21,410 nucleotides of DNA from a virus. The DNA is taken from IMG/VR virus record IMGVR_UViG_3300045988_119030, positions 1-21,410 of that record. One strand, given 5' to 3'. A program made the translations under genes and the position numbers. The notes below the pieces were generated by a model, which did not search any database, was not told the DNA's origin, and saw only the letters and a list, made by a program, of their open reading frames with translations. Within the stretch, counting starts at the first letter, position 1. Every line of letters begins with the position of its first letter. Positions 1 to 18,760 of this stretch are shown piece after piece.

Positions 1-30
1 TTTAATTTTCCCCTTTCATTTGATACGTTA

Positions 31-59
31 AGTATAGCAGAATAAAAGGCTTTTGTCAA
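31..59 (-). promoter_or_regulatory. sigma-A type promoter TTGACA-N17-TGcTATACT. Drives a leftward gene whose start lies beyond the left edge of the window.
   Basis: Minus strand reads gggcTTGACAaaagccttttattcTGcTATACT, followed by RBS GAAAGGGGA at the window edge. The -35 sits in a small hairpin GGCTT/AAGCC. Confidence 0.55.
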
Positions 60-64
60 GCCCT

Positions 65-538: not shown

Positions 539-567
539 TATTATCACCCTTTCCTTTTTCTATTATA

Positions 568-596
568 ATAATATCATATTATAATAGAAATGTCAA
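568..596 (-). promoter_or_regulatory. promoter TTGACA-N17-TGaTATTAT for gene 65-538
   Basis: Minus strand reads ctctctaTTGACAtttctattataatatgaTATTAT. AT-rich UP-like region upstream. Confidence 0.5.
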
Positions 597-762
597 TAGA
601 GAGTTTTTAATTTACTCTTTTAATTTTTCTAATAGGTCATCAGCACATTCATAGCTGATGCTTCTGCGGCCGCACTCATTGGACAAAGGACAACAAGCGC
701 AGTCGTTAAAGGTTTCCGTCCAAGCGCGCAACCACTCAATTAAACATAAAACATTAACTCTT

Positions 763-1107
763 TCACCCATTATTATCATTCTCCTTTACTCGGACAAAAA
801 AGACCTTGTTATAGATTTTCGTTGCTTTGGGGTCAATCCAGAAATACACATTACCGCATACTCGATAGATTTTACAAGTTTCTTCACTAACCTTTTTGAC
901 TTCTTCAAATTTCTCTGGCGTGGTGGGGTGGAAAACCGTCAGTTTGAGGAATATGCAATAGAAAGCCAAAGGAACGAAGCCGATAATCATAGCAATCCAT
1001 GCGAGAACATCAGTTAAAGTGTTTTCCCAATCACACCACTCATCGGTGATTGTAGCGAACGCAATACCCACGCAGAACGCGAGAATCAACCAATACCATG
1101 CCACCAT
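763..1107 (-). CDS. early small membrane protein (2 predicted TM helices, 114 aa)
   Basis: ORF with strong RBS AAAGGGGGAAT-N6-ATG. Hydrophobic stretches. Preferred over the overlapping plus ORF 658-1017 because of the RBS and same-strand operon context. Confidence 0.6.
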   Translation of the reverse strand: MVAWYWLILAFCVGIAFATITDEWCDWENTLTDVLAWIAMIIGFVPLAFYCIFLKLTVFHPTTPEKFEEVKKVSEETCKIYRVCGNVYFWIDPKATKIYNKVFFVRVKENDNNG

Positions 1108-1137
1108 TATTTTATTCCCCCTTTATTTGTTGTATAC

Positions 1138-1166
1138 ATATTACCACATTATAGGATTTTTGTCTA
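1138..1166 (-). promoter_or_regulatory. proximal promoter TAGACA-N17-TGgTAATAT for 763-1107
   Basis: Minus strand reads aaTAGACAaaaatcctataatgtggTAATAT. Confidence 0.4.
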
Positions 1167-1226
1167 TTGGTATTTTACACAAAAATTCGTGCGAAAATTT
1201 GTTGAATCTACCTCTTGACAAAAAAC

Positions 1227-1255
1227 TCGGCGCGCCACAATCGTCCGCGCGCCGA
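1227..1255 (-). promoter_or_regulatory. GC-rich hairpin (TCGGCGCGC-N11-GCGCGCCGA) with a minus-strand U-tract, sitting between tandem promoters in the leader of 763-1107. Terminator or attenuator-like.
   Basis: aaaaaacTCGGCGCGCcacaatcgtccGCGCGCCGAcaatttt. Same AAAACTCGGCGCG lead-in as hairpin 6073-6097. Confidence 0.45.
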
Positions 1256-1257
1256 CA

Positions 1258-1286
1258 ATTTTATCACATTCAAGGAACTTTGTCAA
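1258..1286 (-). promoter_or_regulatory. promoter TTGACA-N17-TAAAAT (distal promoter for 763-1107). Its start site falls at the base of GC hairpin 1227-1255.
   Basis: Minus strand reads cactaTTGACAaagttccttgaatgtgaTAAAAT. Confidence 0.45.
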
Positions 1287-1299
1287 TAGTGAAAGTAAA

Positions 1300-1326
1300 C
1301 AAAAAAAATCACCCAATTTGGGTGAT
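1300..1326 (-). terminator. rho-independent terminator after 1334-1507
   Basis: Stem ATCACCCAA/TTGGGTGAT, then T8 on the minus strand. Confidence 0.65.
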
Positions 1327-1333
1327 TTTTCAT

Positions 1334-1507
1334 TTAGTTTTCTACGGCTTCGAGGTCGACGAGGATGGGAACGAGCTTGTCTTCAAGAAGCGAAACACGT
1401 TCAAGCATTTCGTCCATTTCATCAGGGGAAAAATGCTTCTGAATACCATAGCGCGCCATCGCGCAAACTTTTACAACAACCTCGCTGAGCTTTTCCTTAT
1501 TTTCCAT
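1334..1507 (-). CDS. hypothetical small acidic protein. The ATG at 1507 has RBS GGAGAT-N7; the ORF-track start at 1522 is also possible.
   Basis: ORF plus RBS. The terminator at 1300-1326 follows immediately downstream. Confidence 0.5.
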   Translation of the reverse strand: MENKEKLSEVVVKVCAMARYGIQKHFSPDEMDEMLERVSLLEDKLVPILVDLEAVEN

Positions 1508-1618
1508 TTTTCTTATCTCCATTCAATTTATTTTTTGGAAAGGGTGGCGGTTGTTTCAGGCACAACCGCCAAAGCCATAGGAAAGGGGGAGAAAAACACG
1601 AACAAAAGTTCGGTTTTG

Positions 1619-1858
1619 TCAAGGGATAATCAGTTCTGCGTCATAGACAGGCCGAACCATGCAGGGCGAGCCAAAGCAGTCGAGATTGTAAGTGTCCAAA
1701 TTGAGAGCGTTCCATTCTTCTGCGCCGGTATCTTCATCAACCACAGTCGCGATTTTGATGTAATAGACGTTTCCAGAAGCGGGGTCTTGAAAAATCATAC
1801 CCTCGGGAAGGTCTTCAAATGCAACCATTTTGTTGCTATGCTTAACAGTAATTTTCAT
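1619..1858 (-). CDS. hypothetical protein (~79 aa). The track start at 1867 is GTG; the ATG at 1858 has RBS AAAGGGTGA.
   Basis: ORF. The TGA stop of upstream gene 1864-2217 lies inside this RBS (translational coupling). Confidence 0.55.
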   Translation of the reverse strand: MKITVKHSNKMVAFEDLPEGMIFQDPASGNVYYIKIATVVDEDTGAEEWNALNLDTYNLDCFGSPCMVRPVYDAELIIP

Positions 1859-1863
1859 TTCGT

Positions 1864-2217
1864 TCACCCTTTATAATAGTATTTGTAAGCCCATTCGATA
1901 ATTTCATGGCTTGTGGTAGTCCATTCTTCTTTGGGACTATCGAACTTTTCCGCATACTTTTTGATGTAGTTATTATACTCCATGCGTGCGGTGTCGTATG
2001 CTCCAATAGCCACAATTAAAGCGTGCTTCGCTTCTTCGGCATCAGAGACGGCTTTCTTGCGGTCGGGGCAGTCAGGATAGAGGTTAATCACCCCTACGCG
2101 CGTAATGACTTGCCTTGTCTTTTCATAAAGGCGGTCGCGCGTTTCCCATACTTCATAAAGCTCATCGTCCGCGCGTTTTTCATATGGGTTGAAAGGCTTC
2201 TTTTTCTTACCGAACAT
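1864..2217 (-). CDS. hypothetical protein (~117 aa, starting MFGKKKK...). The long N-terminal extension in the ORF track (to 2469) is probably not translated.
   Basis: RBS AAAGGAG-N10-ATG at 2217. The ATG overlaps the TAA stop of upstream gene 2207-2545 (ATGTTCGGTAA). Confidence 0.5.
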   Translation of the reverse strand: MFGKKKKPFNPYEKRADDELYEVWETRDRLYEKTRQVITRVGVINLYPDCPDRKKAVSDAEEAKHALIVAIGAYDTARMEYNNYIKKYAEKFDSPKEEWTTTSHEIIEWAYKYYYKG

Positions 2218-2545
2218 TTTTCTTTTTCTCCTTTTCTTGCTTATTCCACATTCTATCAAAGAACGCATTTGCGAGGACACGCTTGTAAAGGTTGTCAGGC
2301 ATGGGGCGCTCGCCGTGCTTGTTTCTCCATATCGCGGTGATTTTATCAATATCCGCGATATAGGCTGTAATGAGTGTGCCATCGGAAGCGCTACGAACGA
2401 GAAGAACACCTGTTGTAGTGATAGTGTAGAGAATATCGTCCTCAACGCTGTCGATATATGGTTCGCCAATTCCTACATTATCGTAGATGAAGAGCAGGCG
2501 GTCAATGCGGTCTTGCGTGGCATGTTTTGACATTTTGATAAGCAT
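2207..2545 (-). CDS. hypothetical protein (~112 aa, starting MLIKMSKH...)
   Basis: RBS AAAGAGGT-N7-ATG at 2545. Promoter at 2583-2611 immediately upstream. Confidence 0.55.
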   Translation of the reverse strand: MLIKMSKHATQDRIDRLLFIYDNVGIGEPYIDSVEDDILYTITTTGVLLVRSASDGTLITAYIADIDKITAIWRNKHGERPMPDNLYKRVLANAFFDRMWNKQEKEKKKNVR

Positions 2546-2582
2546 TTGTTTTACCTCTTTCTTTTCCTCTTGGATTGATTGT

Positions 2583-2611
2583 ATTATACCATATGGGGAG
2601 GGGCTTGTCAA
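2583..2611 (-). promoter_or_regulatory. promoter TTGACA-N17-TGgTATAAT for 2207-2545. The -35 lies at the centre of palindrome GGGGCTTGTCAAGCCCC (2600-2616).
   Basis: Minus strand reads aggggcTTGACAagcccctccccatatggTATAAT. Confidence 0.6.
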
Positions 2612-2617
2612 GCCCCT

Positions 2618-2767
2618 TTAATACAATTGTTCCCCATCGTGGTAGCGCTCATATTCCGCTTCAAGGAAGTCGAGAATAGTTTCAAAGTCGTCTGCGTCTG
2701 CGGGGTCGGCAAAGACCTTTTCAAAGACTTCGTTAGTGTGCCAATTGTGAACTCGAACAATATCCAT
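2618..2767 (-). CDS. small acidic protein, 49 aa (MDIVRVHNWHTNEVFEKVFADPADADDFETILDFLEAEYERYHDGEQLY). Not in the ORF track because under 60 aa.
   Basis: RBS AAGAAAGAGGTAAG-N-ATG. Sits between promoter 2798-2826 and the terminator/promoter palindrome at 2600-2616. Confidence 0.5.
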   Translation of the reverse strand: MDIVRVHNWHTNEVFEKVFADPADADDFETILDFLEAEYERYHDGEQLY

Positions 2768-2797
2768 TTTACTTACCTCTTTCTTGATTGTATATGT

Positions 2798-2826
2798 ATT
2801 ATATCATGCGAAAGGGCTTTTGTCAA
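2798..2826 (-). promoter_or_regulatory. promoter TTGACA-N17-TATAAT for small gene 2618-2767. The -35 is inside hairpin AAGGGCTT/AAGCCCTT (2813-2833).
   Basis: Minus strand reads aaagggcTTGACAaaagccctttcgcatgaTATAAT. Confidence 0.6.
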
Positions 2827-2844
2827 GCCCTTTTTCTTATTTTT

Positions 2845-3200
2845 TTATTCTTTTTCTCGAATGGAATAATAAACCTTATTCCCTCGCGGTCTGCGTTTGA
2901 GTTTATGGTCGAGGTATAACTGCATACAATACCAAGTGAATTTGCCGTTGGCATACTCATAGCCATACTTTTTGAATGCCATAAACTGCATTTCAGTCGG
3001 CGTGATAGGTCTGCCCGCCTCATTCAGCAGTTCAAAGACGAGTTTAATCATCTGCTGTTTTTTCCATTCGCGTTCCTCGCGGTCGGCTTTTAAGTCTCTT
3101 TCATACTTGTCGCAAGCGTGTTCCGCGATACTCAGATCAATGGGCGAGAGAGCGCCGACGCGATGGCCTTTTTCAAAACTTCATAAATATCCTTATTCAT
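2845..3200 (-). CDS. hypothetical protein with an apparent -1 frameshift at an A5 run (plus-strand T5 at 3169-3173). The upstream frame gives MNKDIYEVLKK..., the downstream frame continues GHRVGALSPIDL...MIKLVFELL...SIREKE (~118 aa if joined).
   Basis: RBS AAAGGAAAGGGG-N7-ATG at 3200 and promoter at 3231-3259 serve the 5' frame. The long 3' frame has no start or RBS of its own. The two frames join cleanly at G_AAA_AAG. Confidence 0.45.
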
Positions 3201-3230
3201 TGTAGTTCCCCTTTCCTTTACTATACCTGT

Positions 3231-3259
3231 ATTATATCATCTACTTCTGGATTTGTCAA
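3231..3259 (-). promoter_or_regulatory. promoter TTGACA-N17-TATAAT for 2845-3200
   Basis: Minus strand reads aaaagcccTTGACAaatccagaagtagatgaTATAAT. Preceded by terminator 3273-3297. Confidence 0.6.
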
Positions 3260-3272
3260 GGGCTTTTTGGAA

Positions 3273-3297
3273 AAAGAGGGAAAAATTTTCCCTCTTT
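3273..3297 (-). terminator. rho-independent terminator after 3300-3572
   Basis: Stem AGAGGGAAAA/TTTTCCCTCT, then T5. Confidence 0.6.
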
Positions 3298-3299
3298 AT

Positions 3300-3572
3300 T
3301 TATCCCCAATAGACCGAAAGAACGTTGTCAATGTAGCTGGCTTTATAACCATAATTCTGCATGATATCTTTGCAAGCCTGCCTGACCTTCTTGTCATTTA
3401 ATGAAGCAAGATTACACTCGTAAAGTGTTTCGCCCGTTCCTGCCACTCGCTCAATTTCTGGCATGATGTGGTCTTCGATGAACGCCCGCGCGAGGGCATT
3501 ATTTTTAGCTTGAATTTCTTTGCGAACTTCTTCGGCTTTGCGCGTCATTTCATAAGCATATTTAATTTCCAT
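3300..3572 (-). CDS. hypothetical protein (90 aa)
   Basis: ORF. RBS AAAGGAAAGGGAGAT. Promoter at 3605-3633 embedded in a terminator palindrome. Confidence 0.6.
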   Translation of the reverse strand: MEIKYAYEMTRKAEEVRKEIQAKNNALARAFIEDHIMPEIERVAGTGETLYECNLASLNDKKVRQACKDIMQNYGYKASYIDNVLSVYWG

Positions 3573-3604
3573 GTTGTTATCTCCCTTTCCTTTATTGTAT
3601 CTTT

Positions 3605-3633
3605 ATTATAGCATAGAGGGCTTGTTTTGTCAA
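3605..3633 (-). promoter_or_regulatory. promoter TTGACA-N17-TGcTATAAT for 3300-3572. The -35 is inside hairpin AGAGGGCTTG/CAAGCCCTCT (3617-3642).
   Basis: Minus strand reads agagggcTTGACAaaacaagccctctatgcTATAAT. Confidence 0.6.
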
Positions 3634-3651
3634 GCCCTCTATTTAATTTTT

Positions 3652-3960
3652 TTAGCAGTAGGCCAGATTCCCGCGCGCCCAGCCATATACGCTGATTTGA
3701 TTGCACGCCTTGCCGATTTCAAGCGCCTGCTTCTTGGTCTGCACCCTCTTGGACTTGTCAACATAATAAATGCCGTTCGCAAGCCACACACCGCAGTTTC
3801 CGCCGAAGTCCTTAACCGCGTTGATAGCTTCGCGGGCGGTCTTACATTCAACGCCGTTGGTAGCGACCTGCCAGCCGGACTTGTAGTTGACTTTCTTGCC
3901 ATATTTGAGGGTCATGCCGTCGTTTTCAACGAGCTTACGAATAGAACGAATGTTAATCAT
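3652..3960 (-). CDS. hypothetical protein (~102 aa, starting MINIRSIRKL...). The ORF-track N-terminal extension to 4122 is probably 5' leader.
   Basis: RBS AAAGGGAT-N7-ATG at 3960. Two promoters lie upstream in the leader, at 4012-4040 and 4132-4160. Confidence 0.5.
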   Translation of the reverse strand: MINIRSIRKLVENDGMTLKYGKKVNYKSGWQVATNGVECKTAREAINAVKDFGGNCGVWLANGIYYVDKSKRVQTKKQALEIGKACNQISVYGWARGNLAYC

Positions 3961-4011
3961 GTTGTTATCCCTTTCCGGTTTGGTAGGTTTTCCTTCCCTT
4001 ACTGTGATTAT

Positions 4012-4040
4012 AGTATAGCACCGATTCGGGATTCTGTCTA
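4012..4040 (-). promoter_or_regulatory. proximal promoter TAGACA-N17-TGcTATACT for 3652-3960
   Basis: Minus strand reads aaTAGACAgaatcccgaatcggTGcTATACT. Confidence 0.45.
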
Positions 4041-4101
4041 TTGACATTATGCACAAACTTTCGCCATAAAAATTGTTGAACTTGCCTATTGACACAAAAT
4101 T

Positions 4102-4128
4102 CCGGCCGTGCCTGGCGTGCACGGCCGG
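4102..4128 (-). promoter_or_regulatory. GC-rich hairpin (CCGGCCGTGC-N7-GCACGGCCGG) between tandem promoters in the leader of 3652-3960
   Basis: Perfect 10-bp stem. Sits directly after the -10 of promoter 4132-4160. Confidence 0.45.
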
Positions 4129-4131
4129 CCG

Positions 4132-4160
4132 ATTATATCATAAAGTTTTGAAATTGTCAA
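4132..4160 (-). promoter_or_regulatory. distal promoter TTGACA-N17-TgaTATAAT for 3652-3960. GC hairpin 4102-4128 sits immediately downstream.
   Basis: Minus strand reads gcctaTTGACAatttcaaaactttatgaTATAAT. Preceded by terminator AAAAATCTCCCCAAAAATGGGGAGATTTTTTT (4168-4199). Confidence 0.5.
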
Positions 4161-4167
4161 TAGGCAA

Positions 4168-4199
4168 AATATACAAAAAAATCTCCCCATTTTTGGGGA
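4168..4199 (-). terminator. rho-independent terminator after 4225-4473
   Basis: AAAAATCTCCCCAAAAATGGGGAGATTTTTTT. Confidence 0.6.
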
Positions 4200-4224
4200 G
4201 ATTTTTAATTCAAAAAATTTAATT

Positions 4225-4473
4225 TTAGCCATCAACACAAATAATGAGAACGTCATCTTTGGCTTTCAAACCGCTGACCGGCAGTCCCAGCACCCATTCT
4301 TCACTTGCGCCCAAAACATCACCATTCAGAGTCATGCGACCTTTGCGGTCTTTGAGATAGCGACCGCAAGTGTTTTCATTTATCACTTCAATGCCGTTCC
4401 CCTCATAGAACATCAGCGCGCCCTTTACCAGACCAATCACATTTTTAACCATGCCCAAAGTCATTTTTGTCAA
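4225..4473 (-). CDS. hypothetical small beta-rich protein (82 aa). By eye it weakly resembles EutN/CcmL-family barrel proteins (…GASEEWVLGLPVSGLKA…). Unverified.
   Basis: ORF. RBS GAAAGAAG. Promoter at 4514-4542. Terminator at 4564-4597 upstream. Confidence 0.55.
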   Translation of the reverse strand: MTKMTLGMVKNVIGLVKGALMFYEGNGIEVINENTCGRYLKDRKGRMTLNGDVLGASEEWVLGLPVSGLKAKDDVLIICVDG

Positions 4474-4513
4474 CTTCTTTCGTCTTTAATATCGTTCCTC
4501 TTGGAACAATTAT

Positions 4514-4542
4514 AGTATAGCACAAGGTATAACAAAAATCAA
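4514..4542 (-). promoter_or_regulatory. promoter TTGATT-N17-TGcTATACT for 4225-4473
   Basis: Minus strand reads cctaTTGATTtttgttataccttgTGcTATACT. Confidence 0.55.
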
Positions 4543-4563
4543 TAGGTAAAATGTATAAAAAAC

Positions 4564-4597
4564 TCGGCAGGATTTTGTGTATCCTGCCGAGTTTTTT
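4564..4597. terminator. bidirectional intrinsic terminator (A-run, stem CTCGGCAGG/CCTGCCGAG, T7). Terminates 4597-4791 on the minus strand.
   Basis: aaaaaaCTCGGCAGGattttgtgtatCCTGCCGAGttttttt. Confidence 0.65.
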
Positions 4598-4791
4598 TAC
4601 TCTTCCCAACTCTCGATGACTTCACCGGTCATTGCGTCGATAATGTCAACCGAGAGGACGTTGTCCGCGTCCATAAACTTCTGTCCGAGGGCATATGCAT
4701 TTTCCTGTCCCGCGACAGACACTTCATAGCGATAGCGATTATTATCGCCAGCTTTGTAATTGTAGTAGTTAACAGAAACAATAAATAACAT
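4597..4791 (-). CDS. hypothetical protein (64 aa)
   Basis: ORF. RBS AAAGGGGAT-N7-ATG. Promoter at 4822-4849 (TTGACA-N16-TGgTATAAT). Confidence 0.6.
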   Translation of the reverse strand: MLFIVSVNYYNYKAGDNNRYRYEVSVAGQENAYALGQKFMDADNVLSVDIIDAMTGEVIESWEE

Positions 4792-4821
4792 TTGGTTTAT
4801 CCCCTTTCTTTTTATACTCTT

Positions 4822-4849
4822 ATTATACCATAGTTTCGGGATTTGTCAA
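4822..4849 (-). promoter_or_regulatory. promoter TTGACA-N16-TGgTATAAT for 4597-4791
   Basis: Minus strand reads cctaTTGACAaatcccgaaactaTGgTATAAT. Confidence 0.6.
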
Positions 4850-4877
4850 TAGGTTTTTTGAAAAAAGTTTGAAAAAA

Positions 4878-4901
4878 GATTGGAGCATTACTGCTCCAAT
4901 C
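4878..4901 (-). terminator. terminator after 4888-5163. The stop codon is in the loop.
   Basis: GATTGGAGCA-gtaa-TGCTCCAATC, then T6 on the minus strand. Confidence 0.6.
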
Positions 4902-5163
4902 TATTCACCGGATAGTCGATTGGTTTAACCTCAATCGGCGAGTTAGCCCAGTCATAGGAAACGCGGAAAAATTCAGCACAGTGGTAACTAAAATCAGCCC
5001 AGCCAAAAGTCGCAAGATGCGATTTCCAATCTCTGAAATATGGTTCTAATTCTTGCGTGATATAGAGCGTTTCTTCGAGCCGGTCTAAAAGTTTTTCATT
5101 CTTCGCCACATGGAAAACTGCGGTGGTCTTAGTCTCAGCGTCGGTGATGATGTATGTTTTCAT
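4888..5163 (-). CDS. hypothetical protein (~91 aa, starting MKTYIITDAE...)
   Basis: RBS AAAAGGAGC-N7-ATG at 5163. Promoter at 5194-5221. The last codons plus TAA lie in the terminator hairpin at 4878-4901. Confidence 0.55.
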   Translation of the reverse strand: MKTYIITDAETKTTAVFHVAKNEKLLDRLEETLYITQELEPYFRDWKSHLATFGWADFSYHCAEFFRVSYDWANSPIEVKPIDYPVNRLEQ

Positions 5164-5193
5164 TTGAAAAGCTCCTTTTCTTTTGATACTACC

Positions 5194-5221
5194 ATTATAG
5201 CACACTTTTGGAATTTGTCAA
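5194..5221 (-). promoter_or_regulatory. promoter TTGACA-N16-TGcTATAAT for 4888-5163
   Basis: Minus strand reads ccctaTTGACAaattccaaaagtgTGcTATAAT. Confidence 0.6.
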
Positions 5222-5239
5222 TAGGGAAAATGAAAAAAA

Positions 5240-5261
5240 AGAGAAGTTTTTCAACTTCTCT
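5240..5261 (-). terminator. terminator after small peptide gene 5251-5355
   Basis: AGAGAAGTT-gaaa-AACTTCTCT flanked by an A8 / T8 run. Confidence 0.6.
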
Positions 5262-5355
5262 TTTTCAGTTTCTTTTCTGCCCATTCAATGAGTGCGCCCG
5301 CGCCGATTGTCCCAAAGTAAATGAAAAGTAAAACTAAACCGTCATGCGTGCTCAT
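5251..5355 (-). CDS. small hydrophobic peptide, 34 aa (MSTHDGLVLLFIYFGTIGAGALIEWAEKKLKKRS). Single TM helix plus basic tail. Not in the ORF track.
   Basis: RBS GGAGG-N8-ATG. The ATG begins 1 nt after the TAA of upstream gene 5356-5484 (TAAATG). Its TGA stop lies inside the terminator at 5240-5261. Confidence 0.5.
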   Translation of the reverse strand: MSTHDGLVLLFIYFGTIGAGALIEWAEKKLKKRS

Positions 5356-5484
5356 TTAATATTCCTCCACATACTCTGTAAAAACAAGCTCCCAGTCAGG
5401 GCCAAGATCCGGAGCTTTGCAGTATCGCGACTGTCGAATGTCATGCTCATTAGTGATTTTGTTGATAAACTCGAATTCATACAT
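5356..5484 (-). CDS. hypothetical small protein (~42 aa, starting MYEFEFINK...)
   Basis: RBS AAAAGGAGAT-N8-ATG at 5484. Promoter at 5517-5545. Confidence 0.45.
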   Translation of the reverse strand: MYEFEFINKITNEHDIRQSRYCKAPDLGPDWELVFTEYVEEY

Positions 5485-5516
5485 TTTTATTATCTCCTTT
5501 TTTTTACTGTACCAAT

Positions 5517-5545
5517 AGTATAGCAGATAATAGGGCATTTGTCAA
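5517..5545 (-). promoter_or_regulatory. promoter TTGACA-N17-TGcTATACT for 5356-5484 and 5251-5355
   Basis: Minus strand reads ggtaTTGACAaatgccctattatcTGcTATACT. Confidence 0.55.
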
Positions 5546-5562
5546 TACCATTTATAAAAAAA

Positions 5563-5588
5563 ATGTACGAGGTTTAATCCTCGTACAT
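5563..5588 (-). terminator. terminator after 5574-5870. The stop codon is in the loop.
   Basis: ATGTACGAGG-attaaa-CCTCGTACAT, then T8 on the minus strand. Confidence 0.6.
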
Positions 5589-5870
5589 TTCCATTAACGA
5601 TTTGATTTTTTCGATTGTATTTTCAATTTCTTCTACATAGTCGGTTTGCTCCTCACTTGCGCGCATGGCCTGTTCATATGCGTCATAGATAGTTTCGCAC
5701 TGTTCACGGGTGTAGTCTTCTTCTGGAGCGTGTTCCATGGTGACGACTGCTGTCCAAGCGAGCGTTTCTTTATCGTCAAGGTCATCGGCTTTTTCCGCGG
5801 CAGTGGCAAGCTCATGTTCGAGGCGCGTCTTTTCGAGCGAGAGGGTCTTGAGAAAATCCTTATTAGTCAT
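5574..5870 (-). CDS. hypothetical acidic protein (~98 aa, starting MTNKDFLK...)
   Basis: RBS AAAAGGAGAT-N8-ATG at 5870. Promoter at 5903-5930. Stop codon in the loop of terminator 5563-5588. Confidence 0.55.
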   Translation of the reverse strand: MTNKDFLKTLSLEKTRLEHELATAAEKADDLDDKETLAWTAVVTMEHAPEEDYTREQCETIYDAYEQAMRASEEQTDYVEEIENTIEKIKSLMEMYED

Positions 5871-5902
5871 TGTGGTGTATCTCCTTTTCATTTGATGCCT
5901 TT

Positions 5903-5930
5903 ATTATACCACTTCTGGACTGAATGTCAA
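5903..5930 (-). promoter_or_regulatory. promoter TTGACA-N16-TGgTATAAT for 5574-5870
   Basis: Minus strand reads cctaTTGACAttcagtccagaagTGgTATAAT. The iteron cluster lies immediately upstream. Confidence 0.6.
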
Positions 5931-6022
5931 TAGGTTTTTGAAAAAAATATTTATTCATCAGGGCTGTATAAATATTCATGTATAAATATTCATTTTCGGG
6001 TGTATAAAGGCGACTGGCATAA

Positions 6023-6053
6023 TGCACAAAATGGTTTCAAAATTTTTGTGCAA
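6023..6053. promoter_or_regulatory. palindrome TGCACAAAA-N13-TTTTGTGCA. Candidate operator.
   Basis: aaTGCACAAAAtggtttcaaaattTTTTGTGCAat. The same half-site recurs at 7694-7739 and 4050-4057. Confidence 0.5.
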
Positions 6054-6072
6054 TATAACTATTGCAAAACTC

Positions 6073-6097
6073 GGCGCGCTGCGGCCCACAGCGCGCC
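6073..6097 (-). promoter_or_regulatory. GC-rich hairpin (GGCGCGCTG-N7-CAGCGCGCC) with a short minus-strand U-tract, embedded in the iteron/palindrome region
   Basis: aaaactcGGCGCGCTGcggcccaCAGCGCGCCggcc. Confidence 0.4.
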
Positions 6098-6179
6098 GGC
6101 CAAATGCATATGTATGATTATTCATGTATATTCATTGCATATTCATTGTATATTTATTCATACATAATATGCGAAAATA

Positions 6180-6204
6180 GAGAGAGACTTAATAAGCCTC
6201 TCTC
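6180..6204 (-). terminator. hairpin terminator overlapping the stop of 6189-6554
   Basis: GAGAGAG-N11-CTCTCTC, followed on the minus strand by TATTTTCGC. Modest U-tract. Confidence 0.4.
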
Positions 6205-6554
6205 CATACCTTGATTATTTCATCATCTGCTATATCATCTGTGTCATTGTCGTTTATCCACAAAAGCAGAAAATCATTATCATCAATGGTCATATTCTCA
6301 ACTTCCCATTGGTTGCCGCGTTCGTCCAGTAGCGTGATGGTGTTACCATTTCGGGAAGCGACCTCTGCACCGATAAAGCGTATGCTTCCTCTCTCTGTAC
6401 CAGCGCCACACCATTCATCTAATGCGGTGAGGTCATAGGACTGCGGCGCTTCCTCACAGGCTTCCGCGGTTGTGTGGTCGTGGAATGGGCCGAAGAAAGA
6501 CACGGAGAGAATGATGGCAATGGCCATGGTGATGATTTTGGAAACGTTTTTCAT
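6189..6554 (-). CDS. predicted secreted protein (121 aa). The N-terminus looks like a signal peptide (MKNVSKIITMAIAIILSVSFFG…AEA); mature part acidic.
   Basis: ORF. RBS AAGAAAGAGGTAAAAC-ATG. Terminator hairpin at 6180-6204 overlaps the stop. Confidence 0.55.
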   Translation of the reverse strand: MKNVSKIITMAIAIILSVSFFGPFHDHTTAEACEEAPQSYDLTALDEWCGAGTERGSIRFIGAEVASRNGNTITLLDERGNQWEVENMTIDDNDFLLLWINDNDTDDIADDEIIKVWREAY

Positions 6555-6576
6555 TTTGTTTTACCTCTTTCTTACT

Positions 6577-6720
6577 TTATAGGTTAGTAGCGATAGTGAC
6601 AACAGCAATAAGCATGAGCGTGCTTGAGACAGCTTTACCTACATTCTTGCTATCTATGGCATAGACAAAATTATATGCGCTTATAGCAGTAAGCACAATG
6701 ATAGCGGCGATGATAGACAT
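6577..6720 (-). CDS. small membrane protein, 47 aa, 2 hydrophobic segments (MSIIAAIIVLTAISAYNFVYAIDSKNVGKAVSSTLMLIAVVTIATNL). Not in the ORF track.
   Basis: RBS AGAGGGGAG-N8-ATG. Lies between 6751-7224 and 6189-6554 on the same strand. Confidence 0.45.
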   Translation of the reverse strand: MSIIAAIIVLTAISAYNFVYAIDSKNVGKAVSSTLMLIAVVTIATNL

Positions 6721-6750
6721 GGCATATGCTCCCCTCTTTGAGCGAGTGGG

Positions 6751-7224
6751 TTAAACCCACTCGCTGAATAGCTCGCTGATGAAGTCATCGTGGACATCAT
6801 CAGGCAGTTGGTCGATGGTACACTCATAGGTGCTTACCACGGTAAGCGATGAGCCATTTTCAAGGTTCTCGCGCTCAAACTTATCCCGTTCACCAGATGA
6901 AAGAAAAAATGCGGTATAATCGTAAGTGTCTTCTCCATCATTGATGGAATAATCCACCACCTTAAAGCGCATCTTGTTCCAGAGGTTCGCTATGATGGAA
7001 AGATCCATAGCCAGCTCTTCCTCGCGGCGGACAGCTTCGAGAGACGCCTTATACTTGCGCCATGCGGCTACCGTAAAGTCTCTTATGCCGCACCCGATAA
7101 GACAATGGTATTCCTCTAAGTCTTTGATAACCAGTTTGCGTCCCTCGCGCACCATATCCCAAGCATCTTCTGCCATTGCGTTGATGGTGACAGCATCATA
7201 TTTATGCAAGCCCTGAATTTTCAT
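6751..7224 (-). CDS. hypothetical protein (157 aa)
   Basis: ORF. RBS GGAAGGG. The TAA stop sits in the loop of hairpin GCGAGTGGGTT/AACCCACTCGC (6741-6766). Confidence 0.55.
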   Translation of the reverse strand: MKIQGLHKYDAVTINAMAEDAWDMVREGRKLVIKDLEEYHCLIGCGIRDFTVAAWRKYKASLEAVRREEELAMDLSIIANLWNKMRFKVVDYSINDGEDTYDYTAFFLSSGERDKFERENLENGSSLTVVSTYECTIDQLPDDVHDDFISELFSEWV

Positions 7225-7305
7225 TGTATAGCCCTTCCGCGCTTTTTGCGCTATCGTGTTATATGTAGGTATGTTCCCCCATGTGGGGAGTGAGGGCTTG
7301 CGCCC

Positions 7306-7599
7306 TCACTTTGCAATCTTTGTAGTAACGGAAGCCGCACGCGGCGCGCCAGTCTTCTTGTACTTATCAAAGCACTCGGCGTAGAGTTTCGGCGCTTTGT
7401 TGCGGAACATCACCGTGTCGAGCGTTTCAGTAGCCTTGCCACCCTTGCCAACAATAACAGTAAACTTATTGTAAGTAAAGGTAACGCTTTCGCCGTTAGC
7501 TTCCTCGCGGGCTTCTGCCTTGAGCAATTCTAACTGTTCCTTGAGCGCGTCTATCTGCGCGGAAATCTCGCACATTTTTTTAATTTTATTGTTCGTCAT
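7306..7599 (-). CDS. hypothetical protein (97 aa). First gene of the leftward module.
   Basis: ORF. RBS GAGGAT. The TGA stop lies within terminator stem GTGAGGGC/GCCCTCAC (7291-7312). Confidence 0.55.
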   Translation of the reverse strand: MTNNKIKKMCEISAQIDALKEQLELLKAEAREEANGESVTFTYNKFTVIVGKGGKATETLDTVMFRNKAPKLYAECFDKYKKTGAPRAASVTTKIAK

Positions 7600-7693
7600 T
7601 TTTGAATCCTCATTTCATGCAATTTACTGTTCGGTGTTCCGCCGTTCAGCATGGTTACATGGTAGCAGATTCAGCCACGGAATACAATTGACA

Positions 7694-7739
7694 GATTGCA
7701 CAAAGATTTGTTTTGTACGGGGCGGGTTTTTGTGCAATC
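7694..7739. promoter_or_regulatory. palindrome GATTGCACAAA-N24-TTTGTGCAATC. Second copy of the candidate operator.
   Basis: Perfect 11-bp arms. Lies in the 400-bp noncoding region upstream of the first leftward gene. Confidence 0.5.
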
Positions 7740-7777
7740 TACCGCCGGGCGGCACCCTTGCATCATACCTTTGCATT

Positions 7778-7801
7778 TTTATTCACTCAAAAATGAATAA
7801 A
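7778..7801. repeat. inverted repeat TTTATTCA-N8-TGAATAAA (the iteron motif in palindromic arrangement)
   Basis: ttTTTATTCActcaaaaaTGAATAAAac. Confidence 0.45.
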
Positions 7802-7895
7802 ACCTGCATAGAGGGGGGTGTATTTCGGGAAAAATAAATTTTTATTTATCGTTTTTTCTTTTGCCTGGTCAAAACACAATCTAAATCAATTTTCA

Positions 7896-7935
7896 ATTTC
7901 AAATCACGAAATAATTTAAAATTTCAAATTACGAC
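7896..7935. repeat. imperfect direct repeat ATTTCAAAT(C/T)ACGA(A/C) x2, spaced 25 bp
   Basis: ATTTCAAATCACGAA at 7896-7910. ATTTCAAATTACGAC at 7921-7935. Confidence 0.4.
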
Positions 7936-8025
7936 TTCTTTTTTCTACCTCTTTTAGGCTTCTCACCCCACATAAAAGTGTATAATCCAGAAGTAGCAGA
8001 ATATGTAGCTTTCTGCTGATACTTT

Positions 8026-8421
8026 TTAGCAGCTGCTTTCAAGGGGTTGAGGGGTTTCCGCATTTAATTTTTCCTCCATATATTCGATTAATTTATCTTT
8101 ATATTTACAACTATCAATATATCTATTAATAGTATCTATATCATATTTTTCCATTAAGTGCTCTAATACATATTTGTATTTATTTAACTGATATTCTTCT
8201 TGTTCTTCTTTAGTGCTTAATTGGGCCTTTTCCGCGTCTGATAAAGGTTTATAAGTAATTGTTCTTGACCCATTATCCTTTTGCTCAATACGTATTGTTT
8301 TAAATAATTTCCAATCTCTTACAAAAGGATCTTTATCTCTTGTGGCGTTAAAATATTCTTGTTCTAATCTAAATATTACTGCGTCTATCCCTCTTACTTC
8401 AAAAGGCTGGTTCCGCCTCAT
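8026..8421 (-). CDS. hypothetical protein, AT-rich (~131 aa from MRRNQPFEV...). The track start at 8454 is also possible.
   Basis: ORF. Internal RBS GGGAGG-N9-ATG at 8421. Confidence 0.45.
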   Translation of the reverse strand: MRRNQPFEVRGIDAVIFRLEQEYFNATRDKDPFVRDWKLFKTIRIEQKDNGSRTITYKPLSDAEKAQLSTKEEQEEYQLNKYKYVLEHLMEKYDIDTINRYIDSCKYKDKLIEYMEEKLNAETPQPLESSC

Positions 8422-8638
8422 TTTCAATATCCTCCCATTCAAATGTTCCATCATCTAATTCATATACAAATGCCTGTTTATAGAATGATGAAACAATTCC
8501 ATCATTTGCGATTCCTTTTGGACTATTTTTCGCATCATGGAAACAATTATAAACAATTAGTCCTTGCGTTTCATATCGCGAAAAATCTACTGCCCTTCCC
8601 TCAAAATCATAATTATAAAATATGTTTAACAATAGCAT
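8399..8638 (-). CDS. hypothetical protein (79 aa), AT-rich. Overlaps the start of 8026-8421.
   Basis: ORF. A leftward promoter candidate at 8821-8849 gives a long leader. Confidence 0.4.
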   Translation of the reverse strand: MLLLNIFYNYDFEGRAVDFSRYETQGLIVYNCFHDAKNSPKGIANDGIVSSFYKQAFVYELDDGTFEWEDIENEAEPAF

Positions 8639-8677
8639 ACACTCATATTGTGCGATTGGCCATTTATTTAATTCTTT

Positions 8678-8705
8678 TTGCTAATTTGCCATTTTTTGGT
8701 ATAAT
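8678..8705 (+). promoter_or_regulatory. candidate rightward promoter TTGCTA-N16-TGgTATAAT upstream of a 10-codon ORF (8746-8778) with RBS AAAGGAG
   Basis: Plus strand reads tttTTGCTAatttgccatttttTGgTATAAT. Confidence 0.3.
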
Positions 8706-8820
8706 ACCCAAAAGGCTTTTCTATATAACCATAAAAAAAGGAGTGATGCTACTAATGCACAACTCAATAATACAATAAAAATAATTTCCATAAATACTCT
8801 TTTTCTTTTTTCTTATAATA

Positions 8821-8849
8821 ATAATAAAATAAAAAATAAGAAATGTCAA
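8821..8849 (-). promoter_or_regulatory. candidate leftward promoter TTGACA-N17-TATTAT for 8399-8638 / 8026-8421. Divergent from the rightward promoter.
   Basis: Minus strand reads cgacTTGACAtttcttattttttatttTATTAT. Long AT-rich leader. Confidence 0.35.
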
Positions 8850-8931
8850 GTCGTGGAGCGTAATTGGGCAAAAGTTATTTGTTTTGTTAAAAAAATTTTT
8901 AAATATAAAAAGAAAAAATTTTAAATGAAAC

Positions 8932-8960
8932 TTGACAAAAAAAATTTTTTCGAGTATAAT
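8932..8960 (+). promoter_or_regulatory. consensus promoter TTGACA-N17-TATAAT for the first rightward gene (8985-10040)
   Basis: Plus strand reads aaacTTGACAaaaaaaattttttcgagTATAAT. GGAGG RBS and ATG 25 nt downstream. A-rich upstream. Confidence 0.6.
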
Positions 8961-8984
8961 ATAAATATAGACTGGAGGTAAAAA

Positions 8985-10040
8985 ATGATAAAACTTGATT
9001 ATTCTTTACAAACTCCAGAAGAAAGAAATCAATTAGTCGAACAAATTTTGGCTGATAATCCAGATCCGCCTGAAAAGTATTTAGAAATTTTAGCAGACTA
9101 TTTGGTTCTTTGTATGGAGAAACAAGAAAAAAAGGAGAAAAAATTATTAACTGATAATCGTATGGCTACAGTTAATAAGCGTGAGACTTCTTTTGAAGGT
9201 CTTGTTTCCCAACTCGAAAATGGCGAAGATGGAATTTATAATTTAATTACAGATAATAGAAATACAATATTTCAACCACATATTACAATTACAAAAAAAG
9301 ATTTAGAAGAGATACCAAGTTTAAATTAGTTAAGAGAAGCCATTAATGTTTGGGAGGCTAAATTAAAAGTAACAGAAGGAAAAGATGCTTTTGTTATTAA
9401 AAAGGCTCTTATTGAAATGCGTAAAGATTAGTATGTTATGAAAAATGCTTATCGTCGTCCAATAGTGCCTACAAAATTAACCAGATCAAAGTCTTATATT
9501 CCATTAGATGATAAAACATTTATTTTTGATGATGATGGTTTTCCCATTCCTGATGGAATTAGTTTATTAAGACCTGAAATATGTTCTGCGGTTTTATGTA
9601 ATTATTCCCGACTAAAACAAGATAGTTGGGGCGAATATGATAAAGATTTATGGTATTTAATGGAGGATTTTGATAAGCTTTGTGATAAAGCCTTAGCTAA
9701 TTATCCTCTTTATGATAGAATCGTTGAATATAAAATTGATGGTTTACAAAATATTGACATTCAAGAGAAAATACAAATGGAATTTGGTATTAAACATAGT
9801 CTTGAATATATTTCAAGTTTATGGCGTAATAAAATTCCAAAATTAATTGCTTCGACTGCGGAAGATGAATATTTAGATAATTATTATTTAAATGTTGAAA
9901 AAGGTAAATATAAAAAATGTAGTCGTTGTGGTAAAATAAAATTAGCTCATAATAAATATTTTAGTAAAAATAAAACAAGTAAAGATGGCTTTTATAGTAT
10001 TTGTAAAAGTTGTCGAAATTCTAAGGCCAAAAAATCTTAA
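8985..10040 (+). CDS. zinc-ribbon protein (352 aa if TAG is read through). Two in-frame TAGs at 9327-9329 and 9432-9434. C-terminal CxxC…CxxC motif. Function unknown.
   Basis: Single frame 8985-10040, interrupted only by TAG and ending in TAA. Consensus promoter at 8932-8960. RBS GGAGG-N6-ATG. Confidence 0.6.
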
Positions 10041-10089
10041 TGTTGTCCTTTTGTTTATAATAAATAGTTGAAAGGAGAATATTTTATTT

Positions 10090-11277
10090 ATGGCTGAAAC
10101 ATATTATTGCGAAAAATGTAATCGCACAATGAATGGCACGGAATTCTATTCATCTAATAATTTAGAAAAATATCCTAATGATGGTAAATTTCCTGTGTGC
10201 AAAAAATGTATGACAATGCACGTCGATAATTGGAATCCAGATACTTATTTATGGATTTTACAAGAAGCGGATGTTCCTTATGTTCCAGATGAATGGAATA
10301 AATTAATGGAAAAATATGGGCGCGATCCGCAGTCTATGACCGGTATGACGATTCTTGGACGTTATTTGTCAAAAATGAAACTCAAATAGTTTAAAGATTA
10401 TCGTTGGAAAGATACAGAATTTTTATAGTAGATGGCGAATAATAAATTAGAGCAAACTATGAAGCGTCAAGGATATGATGCTCAATAGATTGCAACCGCT
10501 ATTAAAAAAAGTTCTATTGCTATTCCAGAAGGAGAACTAAAAGAGCCGGTTTATGCTCCACCGCCTAATGCCCCTACGGAAGATTATTTTGCACAATAGA
10601 GTGGTGAAGTTGAACAAGAATTAGACTTAACTGATGAAGACCGCACTTATTTAAGACTTAAATGGGGCAAGACTTATAAACCTGAAGAATGGGTTAAGCT
10701 TGAATAGTTGTATGAAGAAATGATGGCTTCTTATGATATTCAAGGTGCCGGACATAAAGATACGCTAAAATTAATATGTAAGACATCTTTAAAGGCAAAT
10801 CAATTGATCGATATTGGTGATATTGAAGGTTTCCAAAAGATGAGCAAAGTATACGATAGCTTGATGAAGTCTGGTAAATTTACTGCTGCTCAAAATAAAG
10901 CAGAATCAGGTGAATTTGTTGATTCAATTGGCGAATTAATTGAATTATGTGAAAAAGAAGGATATATTGAAAGATATTATGTTGAATAGCCACATGATAA
11001 AGTGGATTTAACTATTCAAGATATGCAACGTTATACTCGCACTCTTATTGAAGATGAAACTAATATCAGCACAATGGTAGAAAAAGCTTTGCGCGAAAAT
11101 GCTAAAGAAGATGAAGAGAAAGCAAAGAACGCGGAAAGCGATATCGTTGATGATGCTGATTTAAGTATTGAAGAACTTGAAAAAACTATTAAAGATAGTG
11201 ATTACGCGGATTTTGAGGAATTTAAAGAATAGGAGTCCGCGCAAGATAATGAGTTCTTATAGAGTTTGGATAAATAA
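10090..11277 (+). CDS. protein with N-terminal CxxC…CxxC zinc ribbon (~395 aa). Nine in-frame TAGs including tandem TAG-TAG at 10431-10436. Possibly small terminase or another DNA-packaging protein by position.
   Basis: One continuous frame joining ORFs 10090-10389, 10708-10989 and 11002-11232. All interruptions are TAG. The TAA stop overlaps the terL ATG (TAATG). Confidence 0.5.
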
Positions 11278-13016
11278 TGGCATTACAAGATTTACTGTAG
11301 TTAAGTGATAGCCGTAGAAAAATAGGTCTATCACCGGAGCGAGTAGAAGCGGTAATGCCCACTATCCGCAAATACGTTGCCTTTTGGAGAGAATATCCTG
11401 ATTTATTTGTAGATTTTATGGTTCGAGGAAGACGCACTGAAATAAAAGATGGAGAATTTAACTTTTATTTTTATTAGAGAGTATTTCTCCGTTCTGTTAT
11501 GCGTTATTAGTATGTTTACGCGGTTTTTCCTCGTGCTTATTCCAAATCATTCTTGTCTGTTATGGCATTAATGATTAGATGTATTTTATATCCTGGTGCG
11601 CATTTGTTCGTTACTTCTGGAGGTAAAGAACAAGGTGCTAGTATTCTTCATGATAAAGTTCAAGAAATATGTGAACTTATTCCAAGCTTTAATCGAGAAA
11701 TTGATTGGAGCCGAGGAAAAACTCTTGAAGGAAAAGATAAAGTTAGATATGTGTTTAAAAATGGTTCAGTTTTGGATAACCTCGCAGCCCGTGAAAGCAC
11801 TCGTGGTTAGCGTCGTCATGGTGGACTAATGGAAGAATGTGTTGGTATTGATGATACCATTCTTCGTGAAGTTATTATTCCTGTTATGGCAATTTCTCGT
11901 AGAGCTAAAGATGGCACTACTAATGAACAAGAGCCATTAAACAAATCACAAATCTATATTACTACTGCTGGTTATAAGGGCACATTTCCTTATGATAGAC
12001 TTATTGGTTTCTTAGTTCGTATGGTAACTTAGCCTGATCGTTGTATGGTATTAGGCGGAACATGGCGAACTCCTGTTGCAGTAGGATTACAAAGTAAAAC
12101 ATTTATTACTGACCAAAAGAATGAAGGAACTTATAATGAAGCTTCATTCGAACGTGAATACGAGTCTAAGTGGTCAGGAACTGTTGAAGATGCTTTCTTT
12201 AATGGAGAGCATTTTGATAGAAATAGAAAACTATTATAGCCTGAATATGAAGCTTCTGGACGTGCGGGCGCGCAAGCTTATTATGTGCTTTCAGTAGATG
12301 TAGGTCGTAAGGGATGCGATTCAGTAGTTTGTGTATTTAAAGTAACACCACAAGCTCAAGGTCCAGCTATTAAATCTTTAGTAAATATGTATACTATGTC
12401 AGATGATCATTTTGAAGATTAGGCTATTAAATTAAAGAAATTATTTTATAAATATAAAGCTAAAACTTTGGTTATAGACGGTAACGGTTTAGGTATTGGA
12501 CTTTTGGATTATATGGTAAAATCTCAAAATGATGAAGACGGTGAATTTTTACCTGATTTTGGTGTTGAGAATGATGATGATGGATATTATAAAAAATATC
12601 GTACACAAAATACTCAATTTGATGCTATGTATGTTATTAAAGCAAATGCTCCAATAAATACTGAATGTCATGCTAATGCTCAGACTCAATTACAGGCGGG
12701 TAAGGTAAAATTCTTAATAGATGAGAGAACAGCTAAAGAAAAATTATTAGCTACTCAAAAAGGTTCAAAAATGACTTCTGAACAAAGGGCAGATTATTTA
12801 AAACCATTTACTTTAACCTCCATATTAAAAGAAGAAATGATGAATTTACGCGAAGAAAATGAAGGTATTAATATTATCCTAAAATAGGCAAATCGCGGAA
12901 TTCGTAAAGATAAATTTTCGGCTTTTGAATATGGATTATATTATTTAAAACTTGAAGAAGATAAAAAGAAAAAACGTAAAAAGTTTAATGCGGCTGATTG
13001 GTGCTTTTTAAATTAA
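11277..13016 (+). CDS. terL: terminase large subunit (~579 aa). Eight in-frame TAG codons, at 11298, 11475, 11508, ~11806, ~12030, 12237, 12420 and 12885. Ends with TAA.
   Basis: Frame-0 continuity across ORFs 11553-11810, 11829-12032, 12045-12239 and 12468-12887. N-terminal ATPase Q-motif FY*RVFL followed by a Walker-A-like PRAYSKS. Walker-B-like STRG*RRHGGLMEE. C-terminal nuclease motifs YVLSVDVGRKGCDSVV and VIDGNGLGIGLLD. Confidence 0.8.
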
Positions 13017-13028
13017 GGAGGGTGGAAA

Positions 13029-13385: not shown

Positions 13386-13398
13386 AGGAGGTGGAACT

Positions 13399-15048: not shown

Positions 15049-15057
15049 GGAGGATTT

Positions 15058-16641: not shown

Positions 16642-16658
16642 TAAGGAGGACATACTAA

Positions 16659-17576: not shown

Positions 17577-17593
17577 GAAAGGAGAAAAGGATA

Positions 17594-18700: not shown

Positions 18701-18720
18701 TTTAATATAAATTATTCCAT

Positions 18721-18760
18721 GGGGAGAAGGGATTAAACTCCCTCTCCCCATATTTTTGTT
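18721..18760 (+). terminator. strong rho-independent terminator after the putative major capsid gene
   Basis: GGGGAGAAGGGA-ttaaac-TCCCTCTCCCC followed by ATATTTTTGTTTT. Confidence 0.7.

Follow-up and report, generated by a model that had tools for sequence, protein, structure and literature searches.

The gap between two early genes at positions 5892–6188 of the phage DNA analyzed here (21,410 nucleotides of IMG/VR record IMGVR_UViG_3300045988_119030, referred to below as the window) contains two arrays of the heptamer ATGAATA. Judged from their sequence, these heptamers are best read as candidate half-sites of ARG boxes, five or six of which would make up the two arrays. On balance, the region is probably a set of operators for the host arginine repressor (ArgR/AhrC) or a protein of the same specificity, and it would most likely tie a few early phage genes to the arginine status of the host. 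The element is of a known kind in a new place. This assignment draws on an observed match to the ARG-box sequence, on the specificity of this match in plausible hosts, on the position of the boxes relative to promoters, and on their conservation. An earlier note on the same DNA had offered two interpretations of the repeats, an origin of replication or a high-occupancy regulator site. The second of these fits the data described below, the first finds no support in them.

Results and Discussion

Genomic Context

The source of the window looks like a large phage, lytic-type in appearance, with a sigma-A early module. The minus strand of positions 1–8850 carries about 13 consensus or near-consensus sigma-A promoters (TTGACA-16/17-TGnTATAAT), each with a strong Shine-Dalgarno sequence, a small open reading frame (ORF) and a hairpin terminator behind it. 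Several of the terminator stems overlap the next −35 element (GGGC-TTGACA-AAAGCCC). This layout is an early host-takeover-type module of a phage infecting Firmicutes. The early genes on the minus strand use the standard code. The plus-strand genes from 8982 to 21410 are readable only with TAG as a sense codon, and the ORFs then tile cleanly: a sigma-like gene (phrog_5767, 8982–10040), which is split in two unless TAG is sense, is followed by recoded ORFs at 10072–11277 and 11274–13016, a recoded portal gene at 13369–15048, a recoded ORF at 15049–16641 and further ORFs. A consensus sigma-A promoter (8932–8960) lies directly before the sigma-like gene. Among described records phAss-1 is the closest, sharing 50% identity in one structural protein. 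This TAG-recoding gut phage is predicted to infect Clostridia (PMC10607447). IMG/VR and other public assemblies contain related contigs of 110–197 kb. Searches for near and distant DNA matches among annotated phages and plasmids gave none, or the promoter consensus only (Staphylococcus phages), and Rfam and tRNA scans returned no match at the heptamer site.

Heptamer Arrays and Neighboring Elements

The repeat cluster is real and denser than chance would produce. In the shuffled-sequence test that the earlier note had suggested, the 297-bp intergenic region was shuffled 5000 times with its dinucleotides preserved, and any 7-mer reached seven copies in only 9 shuffles. The exact count of TATTCAT is seven (starts at 5952, 5973, 5987, 6119, 6129, 6140 and 6155; span 5952–6161, 210 bp) and not at least eight as first reported; eight more copies carry one mismatch. 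Since all seven read TATTCAT on the plus strand, none reads ATGAATA on that strand. The whole 21.4-kb window holds 16 heptamers on both strands versus 8.7 expected, and those elsewhere are mostly ATG-AAT-A start codons. No heptamer enrichment was found upstream of plus-strand genes. No other heptamer clusters as densely as ATGAATA, either in the window or in any array-bearing relative. A scan of IMG/VR for three spaced ATGAATA copies detected only unrelated coding and tandem repeats, and a literature search on the heptamer gave nothing informative.

Most other details of the first description survive with corrected numbers. The tandem 14-bp repeat is present as TGTATAAATATTCA at 5965–5978 and 5979–5992, and so is the GC hairpin (6072–6098). 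The four copies said to be phased at about 11 bp exist, with spacings of 10, 11 and 15 bp instead of a uniform 11. The palindrome has its arms at 6023–6031 (TGCACAAAA) and 6044–6052 (TTTTGTGCA), and its spacer measures 12 nt, not 13. The region is indeed intergenic, but spans 297 bp (5892–6188), or 318 bp up to the likelier start codon at 5870, and not 250 bp. Finally, the inverted pair placed at 7778–7801 consists of one exact copy (ATGAATA, 7793–7799, plus strand) and one copy with a mismatch (TATTCAc, 7780–7786).

Two minus-strand genes flank the gap, 6189–6554 upstream and 5574–5870 downstream. Read along the minus strand, the gap opens with the terminator of the upstream operon, T1 (6177–6207), a hairpin over the stop codon of the upstream gene followed by UAUUUUCG. 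T1 (−18.8 kcal/mol, z −4.5) is kept in all relatives, the array-less ones included. Four ATGAATA copies (6161–6119) come next, then a GC-rich hairpin (T2), the palindrome, three ATGAATA copies (5993–5952), an A/T tract, the promoter P_C (5930–5903), the ribosome-binding site AAAGGAG and the ATG at 5870. P_C is a consensus sigma-A promoter (TTGACA-16-TGgTATAAT) with 12 of 12 matching positions and an extended −10, and drives a gene for an acidic protein of 98 amino acids (5574–5870). The proximal array (5944–5992) lies 13–62 nt upstream of the P_C −35, and an alternative count from the promoter gives 22–63 nt. The distal array (6111–6160) is found some 130 bp further upstream, past the terminator hairpin and the palindrome.

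T2 is terminator-like on the minus strand: its stem at 6072–6098 precedes GAGTTTTG, a tail that runs to about 6063. Folded as minus-strand RNA it reaches −25.9 kcal/mol, with GAGUUUUG directly after the hairpin. The two sides of the T2 stem change together in the related loci L011 and L140, which indicates that the hairpin structure is under selection. The palindrome TGCACAAAA-N12-TTTTGTGCA (6023–6052) has a counterpart with the same arms at 7696–7737, and also occurs in array-less relatives.

That the arrays are promoters for another sigma factor ranks low. No sigma-A promoter scoring at least 9 of 12 lies inside the arrays. Inspection by hand revealed no consistent −10 at 11–13 nt downstream of the heptamers, as a MotA-like layout would have, and none at 17–18 nt, as a layout of the sigma-G/F/E/K/H kind would have.

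Match to the ARG Box

The ARG-box consensus is CATGAATAAAAATKCAAK in B. subtilis and TNTGAATWWWWATTCANW in E. coli (both quoted in PMC5291005). On the coding (minus) strand, ATGAATA equals positions 2–8 of the B. subtilis consensus CATGAATAAAAATKCAAK, and in four of the seven copies it makes up the first half of a 14-nt unit, TGAAT-W4-ATACA. We scanned for the pooled 14-nt core TGMATWWWWATKCA with at most one mismatch unless stated otherwise. The window contains four matches versus 1.2 expected; three are in the arrays and one, at 7772–7785, is perfect. This enrichment is modest by itself, as four core matches were reached in 4 of 100 shuffles. With two mismatches allowed, 7 of 17 matches in the window fall within about 300 bp. 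As palindromic boxes, the sites comprise one perfect copy, three with one mismatch (5965, 5979, 6147) and three with two (5944, 6111, 6121). The 18-nt E. coli consensus matches the window twice with at most one mismatch, both times in the regions of the arrays and of box 7772.

All boxes are given on the minus strand. In the proximal array, P1 (5979–5992) and P2 (5965–5978) share the sequence TGAATATTTATACA, one mismatch away from TGMATWWWWATKCA. They abut with a period of 14 bp and hold the heptamers 5987–5993 and 5973–5979. P1 is invariant in seven of eight aligned relatives. The weaker box P3 (5944–5957, TGAATAAATATTTT, two mismatches, heptamer 5952–5958) starts 21 bp after P2, which is the canonical ARG-box spacing, and stops 13 nt before the −35. 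In L140, P3 is retained despite altered flanks, 11 bp nearer the −35. Unit 1 of the distal array is box D1 (6147–6160, TGAATAAATATACA, heptamer 6155–6161), with one mismatch to the core and one to the 18-nt E. coli consensus. The remainder of this array (6111–6146) has three ATGAATA copies (plus-strand coordinates 6140–6146, 6129–6135 and 6119–6125) spaced by 11 and 10 bp, and includes two boxes with two mismatches (6121–6134 and 6111–6124).

The perfect box, TGAATAAAAATGCA, reproduces the B. subtilis consensus core exactly and lies in a second promoter 1.8 kb upstream. It is the basis of the inverted pair mentioned above. At 7772–7785 it is located between the −35 (TTGAGT, 7790–7785) and the −10 (TATGAT, 7767–7762) of P_D, a weak promoter. 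This box is conserved in L002, L003, L011, L140, L141 and L142, where the −35 hexamer is not conserved. Four small genes for proteins of 97, 157, 47 and 121 amino acids form a block of about 48% GC on the minus strand (6189–7599), delimited by P_D on the upstream side and by the arrays on the downstream side. Of these genes, the first three (97, 157 and 47 aa) were found only in array-bearing genomes. None of the four proteins could be assigned to a family or fold. The GC-rich stretch as a whole (6189–7830) is set within DNA of 25–40% GC. Upstream of the 7790 promoter the DNA is AT-rich and contains four to five AAATTGA repeats (GATTTGAAATTGAAAATTGATTTAG-type) at 7880–7935; this array is kept in relatives both with and without the ARG-like arrays (L004, 5530–5640).

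As a positive control, we scanned six Lachnospiraceae arg loci (79 kb), which had been fetched via ArgJ homologues and thus were not chosen by motif. All eight matches with at most one mismatch are upstream of argG, argC or the argJ-argB-argD operon. These boxes lie 7–37 nt or more upstream of the −35, a geometry that is shared by the proximal array of the phage. Two of the six loci gave no match, so the sensitivity of the core pattern is moderate. Array-less phage relatives (49 kb) contain no match to the ARG core. Substitutions in the array-bearing relatives fall at degenerate positions of the consensus (TGAAT to TGCAT, ATACA to ATGCA), and several diverged array-bearing relatives carry perfect boxes.

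Bacterial genomes scanned with a pattern that required abutting boxes yielded 11 matches, a number near chance, and only two of these are close to arginine genes. One lies in the argC/argJ-argB intergenic region of an Acetatifactor metagenome-assembled genome (MAG). The other, in a Lachnoclostridium MAG, is an ATGAATA array (spacing 11 and 14 bp) that lies upstream of an ABC transporter of the Lys/Arg/Orn type. We also scanned consensus patterns of 17 other regulators with at most one mismatch. No match in the arrays was found for Fur, PerR, Zur, CodY, cre, Rex, LexA, TnrA, Fnr, WalR, PhoP, Spo0A, MntR or DnaA; the PlcR box was the only other pattern that matched (one match with one mismatch).

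Canonical ARG operators comprise two 18-bp boxes that are 21 bp apart, with 2–3 bp between them, on one face of the helix. The phage sites resemble such operators in their half-sites (TGAAT/ATKCA, flanked on both sides by the A of the B. subtilis consensus), in their 14-nt cores with zero to two mismatches and in one box placed over a promoter core; the box spacing agrees in part, with a single 21-bp pair. As in Lachnospiraceae arg promoters, the phage arrays are positioned upstream of the −35. They differ in that they occur in the early region of a large phage and not beside arginine genes, and in that half-sites are far more numerous than in the standard two-box operator. Boxes that abut at 14 bp, direct half-site repeats at 10–11 bp and the separation of the arrays by about 130 bp also set them apart.

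Some of these features are weak points of the arginine-repressor assignment. P2/P3 is the single canonical 21-bp pair, and the three distal heptamers are direct 10–11-bp repeats without a good partner half-site. The best and best conserved boxes of the window carry ATACA, not ATKCA. The flipped distal array of L010 and L011, which keeps only one one-mismatch box, speaks against the assignment, as does P_C itself: it is not evident why a consensus promoter with an A/T tract would need sites at −57 to −98 or respond to them.

Conservation in Related Phages

Conservation of the repeats in related genomes, which the earlier note had proposed to assess, holds for part of the relatives. The arrays are present in nine related loci from at least four samples and absent from L004–L008. 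Where present, the proximal array is near-invariant and as conserved as coding sequence. In L001 the downstream gene is swapped, with the proximal array still joined to the −35, and in L140 an 11-bp deletion brings the array one helical turn closer to the promoter and keeps the helical phase. The distal array varies between three and six copies, changing by 11-bp units (six copies in L003 and L009), and carries flipped copies in L010, L011 and L142. The core of the heptamer survives all these changes. Coding constraint on the arrays is ruled out by the 11-bp changes in copy number, which shift the reading frame. Retention of the repeats through changes in number and orientation favors a regulator site, as do their location directly upstream of a consensus early promoter, the match to the ARG-box consensus and the recurrence of the same box in P_D. 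For the more specific suggestion that the site controls the early-to-late switch, no link was found; both flanking genes are early-type, minus-strand and in the standard code.

In the homologue of window positions ~5900–5908, L142 has an extra ATGAATA that overlaps the early promoter at its −10 and start site (~2005–2015, TATAATGAATA). This is a typical repressor position, and has no counterpart in the window.

In L004–L007, which share 75–80% identity in the flanking protein, and in the more distant L008, the whole module is missing and the intergenic region is much shorter. The array element is dispensable at this position in close relatives. These array-less relatives feature an unrelated, perfect 18-bp palindrome, TTGTTAA-N4-TTAACAA, upstream of the homologous promoter, 20–21 nt from its −35. 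It is found in L004–L007 (~6397, ~6820), in L008 (5014–5424) and in L010 (9667); L008 contains six copies within about 450 bp of non-coding DNA. The window has no copy of this palindrome, which looks like an alternative operator module.

An Operator for Another Protein

The main rival to the arginine-repressor assignment is a phage-specific regulator. More generally, the arrays may be operators for a different phage or host protein that binds ATGAATA in either orientation, which would make the likeness to the ARG box coincidental. We regard this as a lesser possibility, though a serious one. The invariant unit is the heptamer and not the 14-mer, spacings vary (10, 11, 14, 15 and 21 bp), and the distal array is flipped in three relatives. 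The arrays also co-occur with the genes for the 97-, 157- and 47-aa proteins, which array-less relatives lack. The location of TTGTTAA-N4-TTAACAA points in the same direction, in that a different palindrome at the same promoter distance suggests interchangeable operator modules. On the other hand, the match to the ARG consensus, the perfect box within a promoter and the substitutions that respect the consensus would then all be due to chance, and the co-varying proteins match no DNA-binding family or fold.

No gene for a binding protein was found among the co-varying neighbors. The 157- and 97-aa proteins have close homologues only. The structural model of the 157-aa protein is of high confidence (pLDDT 92) and consists of a long helical hairpin and a small alpha/beta domain; compared with solved structures (PDB) it gave no match with E < 0.02. 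The model of the 97-aa protein is poor (pLDDT 65), with no significant match in the PDB. Weak YbaB-like matches were rejected (E > 0.5, without Pfam support).

Short repeats are known operators of other proteins: the omega repressor binds heptads and ParR binds 11-bp repeats. In plasmid pSM19035, omega recognizes contiguous heptads (WATCACW), and R1 parC consists of ten regular 11-bp repeats beside parM/parR. The phage arrays share with these operators short repeats that vary in number and orientation, and two clusters around a promoter. They differ from the omega heptads, which are contiguous and of another sequence, and from the ten regular repeats of R1 parC, and the window contains no such partition genes.

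Replication, Partition and Recombination

The region is probably not a replication origin. That the repeats are iterons of a phage origin, at which an initiator opens AT-rich DNA, perhaps aided by transcription from the adjacent strong promoter, seems improbable. Clustered repeats in AT-rich non-coding DNA near strong promoters and short hairpin units are what such an origin might look like, and some lactococcal phage origins are early intergenic regions with direct and inverted repeats. Cumulative GC skew, however, shows no inflection at the arrays: it is flat to falling over 5.5–6.5 kb of the 21-kb window, and its minimum at about 8.5–9.0 kb coincides with the divergent transcription switch. 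The region 5930–6175 contains no DnaA box (TTATCCACA) with at most one mismatch. Among the neighboring proteins no initiator-like gene product and no replication, HTH or winged-helix family was detected, and none of these proteins shows a recognizable DNA-binding fold. A stable GC hairpin takes the place where an unwinding element would be expected. The relatives with 75–80% identity lack the module and have no other cluster in their 12-kb loci. Compared with lambda ori and plasmid iterons, the likeness ends at clustered repeats in AT-rich non-coding DNA. The unit here is 7 bp long with irregular spacing (typical iterons measure 17–22 bp), neither initiator gene, DnaA boxes nor skew signal accompanies it, and the position of the arrays is not conserved in relatives.

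Also ranked low, and hardly probable at all, is a centromere-like partition site in the style of R1 parC, or an accessory site for recombination at which ARG boxes act as they do at ColE1 cer. Two short-repeat clusters separated by about 130 bp beside a promoter would suit such a site, and ArgR is a known accessory factor at cer. ArgR is also said to have been discussed for phage P1. Against this, no ParM, ParA or ParR, no recombinase and no dif-like core is found in the window, whose proteins include no parR/parM or delta/omega partition families. The genome, with its sigma-A early module, looks like that of a large phage of the lytic type, and we know of no role of ArgR/PepA in Xer recombination in Firmicutes.

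Proposed Regulation by Arginine

The arginine-repressor assignment suggests how the sites may work. Arginine-loaded hexamers of the host repressor would occupy the boxes. At P_D, a repressor bound to box 7772–7785 would block RNA polymerase and so repress the promoter. At P_C, cooperative binding to both arrays, possibly by one hexamer that bridges them into a loop, would modulate transcription up or down. The accessory block (7599→6189) and the gene 5870→5574 would then be expressed according to the arginine status of the host.

A precedent is provided by phages of the phi29 family, in which boxes for the host factor Spo0A are located at strong sigma-A early promoters. In both cases a host factor that reports on physiology would sit at early promoters, such that the phage program follows the state of the host. 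The signal here would be arginine instead of entry into sporulation, and the targets would be one or two promoters of an accessory block instead of the main early promoters.

More speculatively, and rather doubtfully as a whole, the region may represent a mobile cassette by which a large TAG-recoded gut phage is wired to the host arginine repressor, for gating, for soaking up ArgR or for both, with modular inputs. In the gating role, the boxes would make accessory early genes dependent on arginine availability. In the titration role, phage DNA at high copy number would soak up ArgR and thereby turn on arginine synthesis by the host, to the benefit of the phage. Relatives would plug TTGTTAA-N4-TTAACAA into the slot about 20 nt upstream of the −35, making the inputs from host or phage factors swappable.

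If ArgR does bind, an uncultivated gut phage reads a nutrient signal of its host at specific early promoters. To our knowledge, few documented phages read a host nutrient signal at early promoters, and we found no case with an arginine repressor in the literature searched. Such binding would also provide a simple experimental handle (a fragment with ARG boxes, ArgR and arginine) for a family of TAG-recoded phages. Should ArgR not bind, a conserved operator array remains, and its protein could be fished with array DNA.

A Repeated Promoter–Terminator Cassette

The GC hairpin and the palindrome are not special to the array locus. Together with the motif TTTTG(T)CAATAG they belong to a cassette that occurs on the minus strand at 1286→1140, 4160→4010 and 6110→5990, in reduced form at 7790→7690, and also in relatives without the heptamers. 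The cassette starts with a strong promoter that fires straight into a terminator: within 3–9 nt follows a GC-rich hairpin with a U tail, and then TTTTG(T)CAATAG, which is an inverted copy of the −35 context CTATTGACA. It ends with a palindrome of the type TTGCACAAA...TTTGTGCAA and a second, weaker promoter. In the other copies, sigma-A promoters hold the positions that are taken here by the two heptamer arrays.

This correspondence with the cassette promoters P1/P2 of the paralogous copies 1286 and 4160, and the change of copy number by 11-bp units, would be in line with a functionless expansion by slippage of degenerate cassette promoter elements in AT-rich DNA. We consider this very improbable, and neutral slippage ranks low together with partition and accessory recombination. 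The heptamer core stays invariant across samples in which flanks, spacing and orientation change, the proximal array is conserved like coding sequence, and the same box occurs in a separate promoter. Inverted copies are not explained by slippage either.

A further palindrome of the early module, CGAACAAAAGTTCG at 1599–1612, is perfect and of the type GAAC-N4-GTTC, which we take to be the LexA consensus in Firmicutes. A scan for CGAACNNNNGTTCG with one mismatch allowed gave one match in the window, at a position that may not be 1599–1612. In three relatives, a single GC hairpin separates two full consensus promoters that point at each other (L009, ~11950–12100; L011, ~11590–11700; L002, ~10400–10460). 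Such facing promoters would yield two short, complementary hairpin RNAs.
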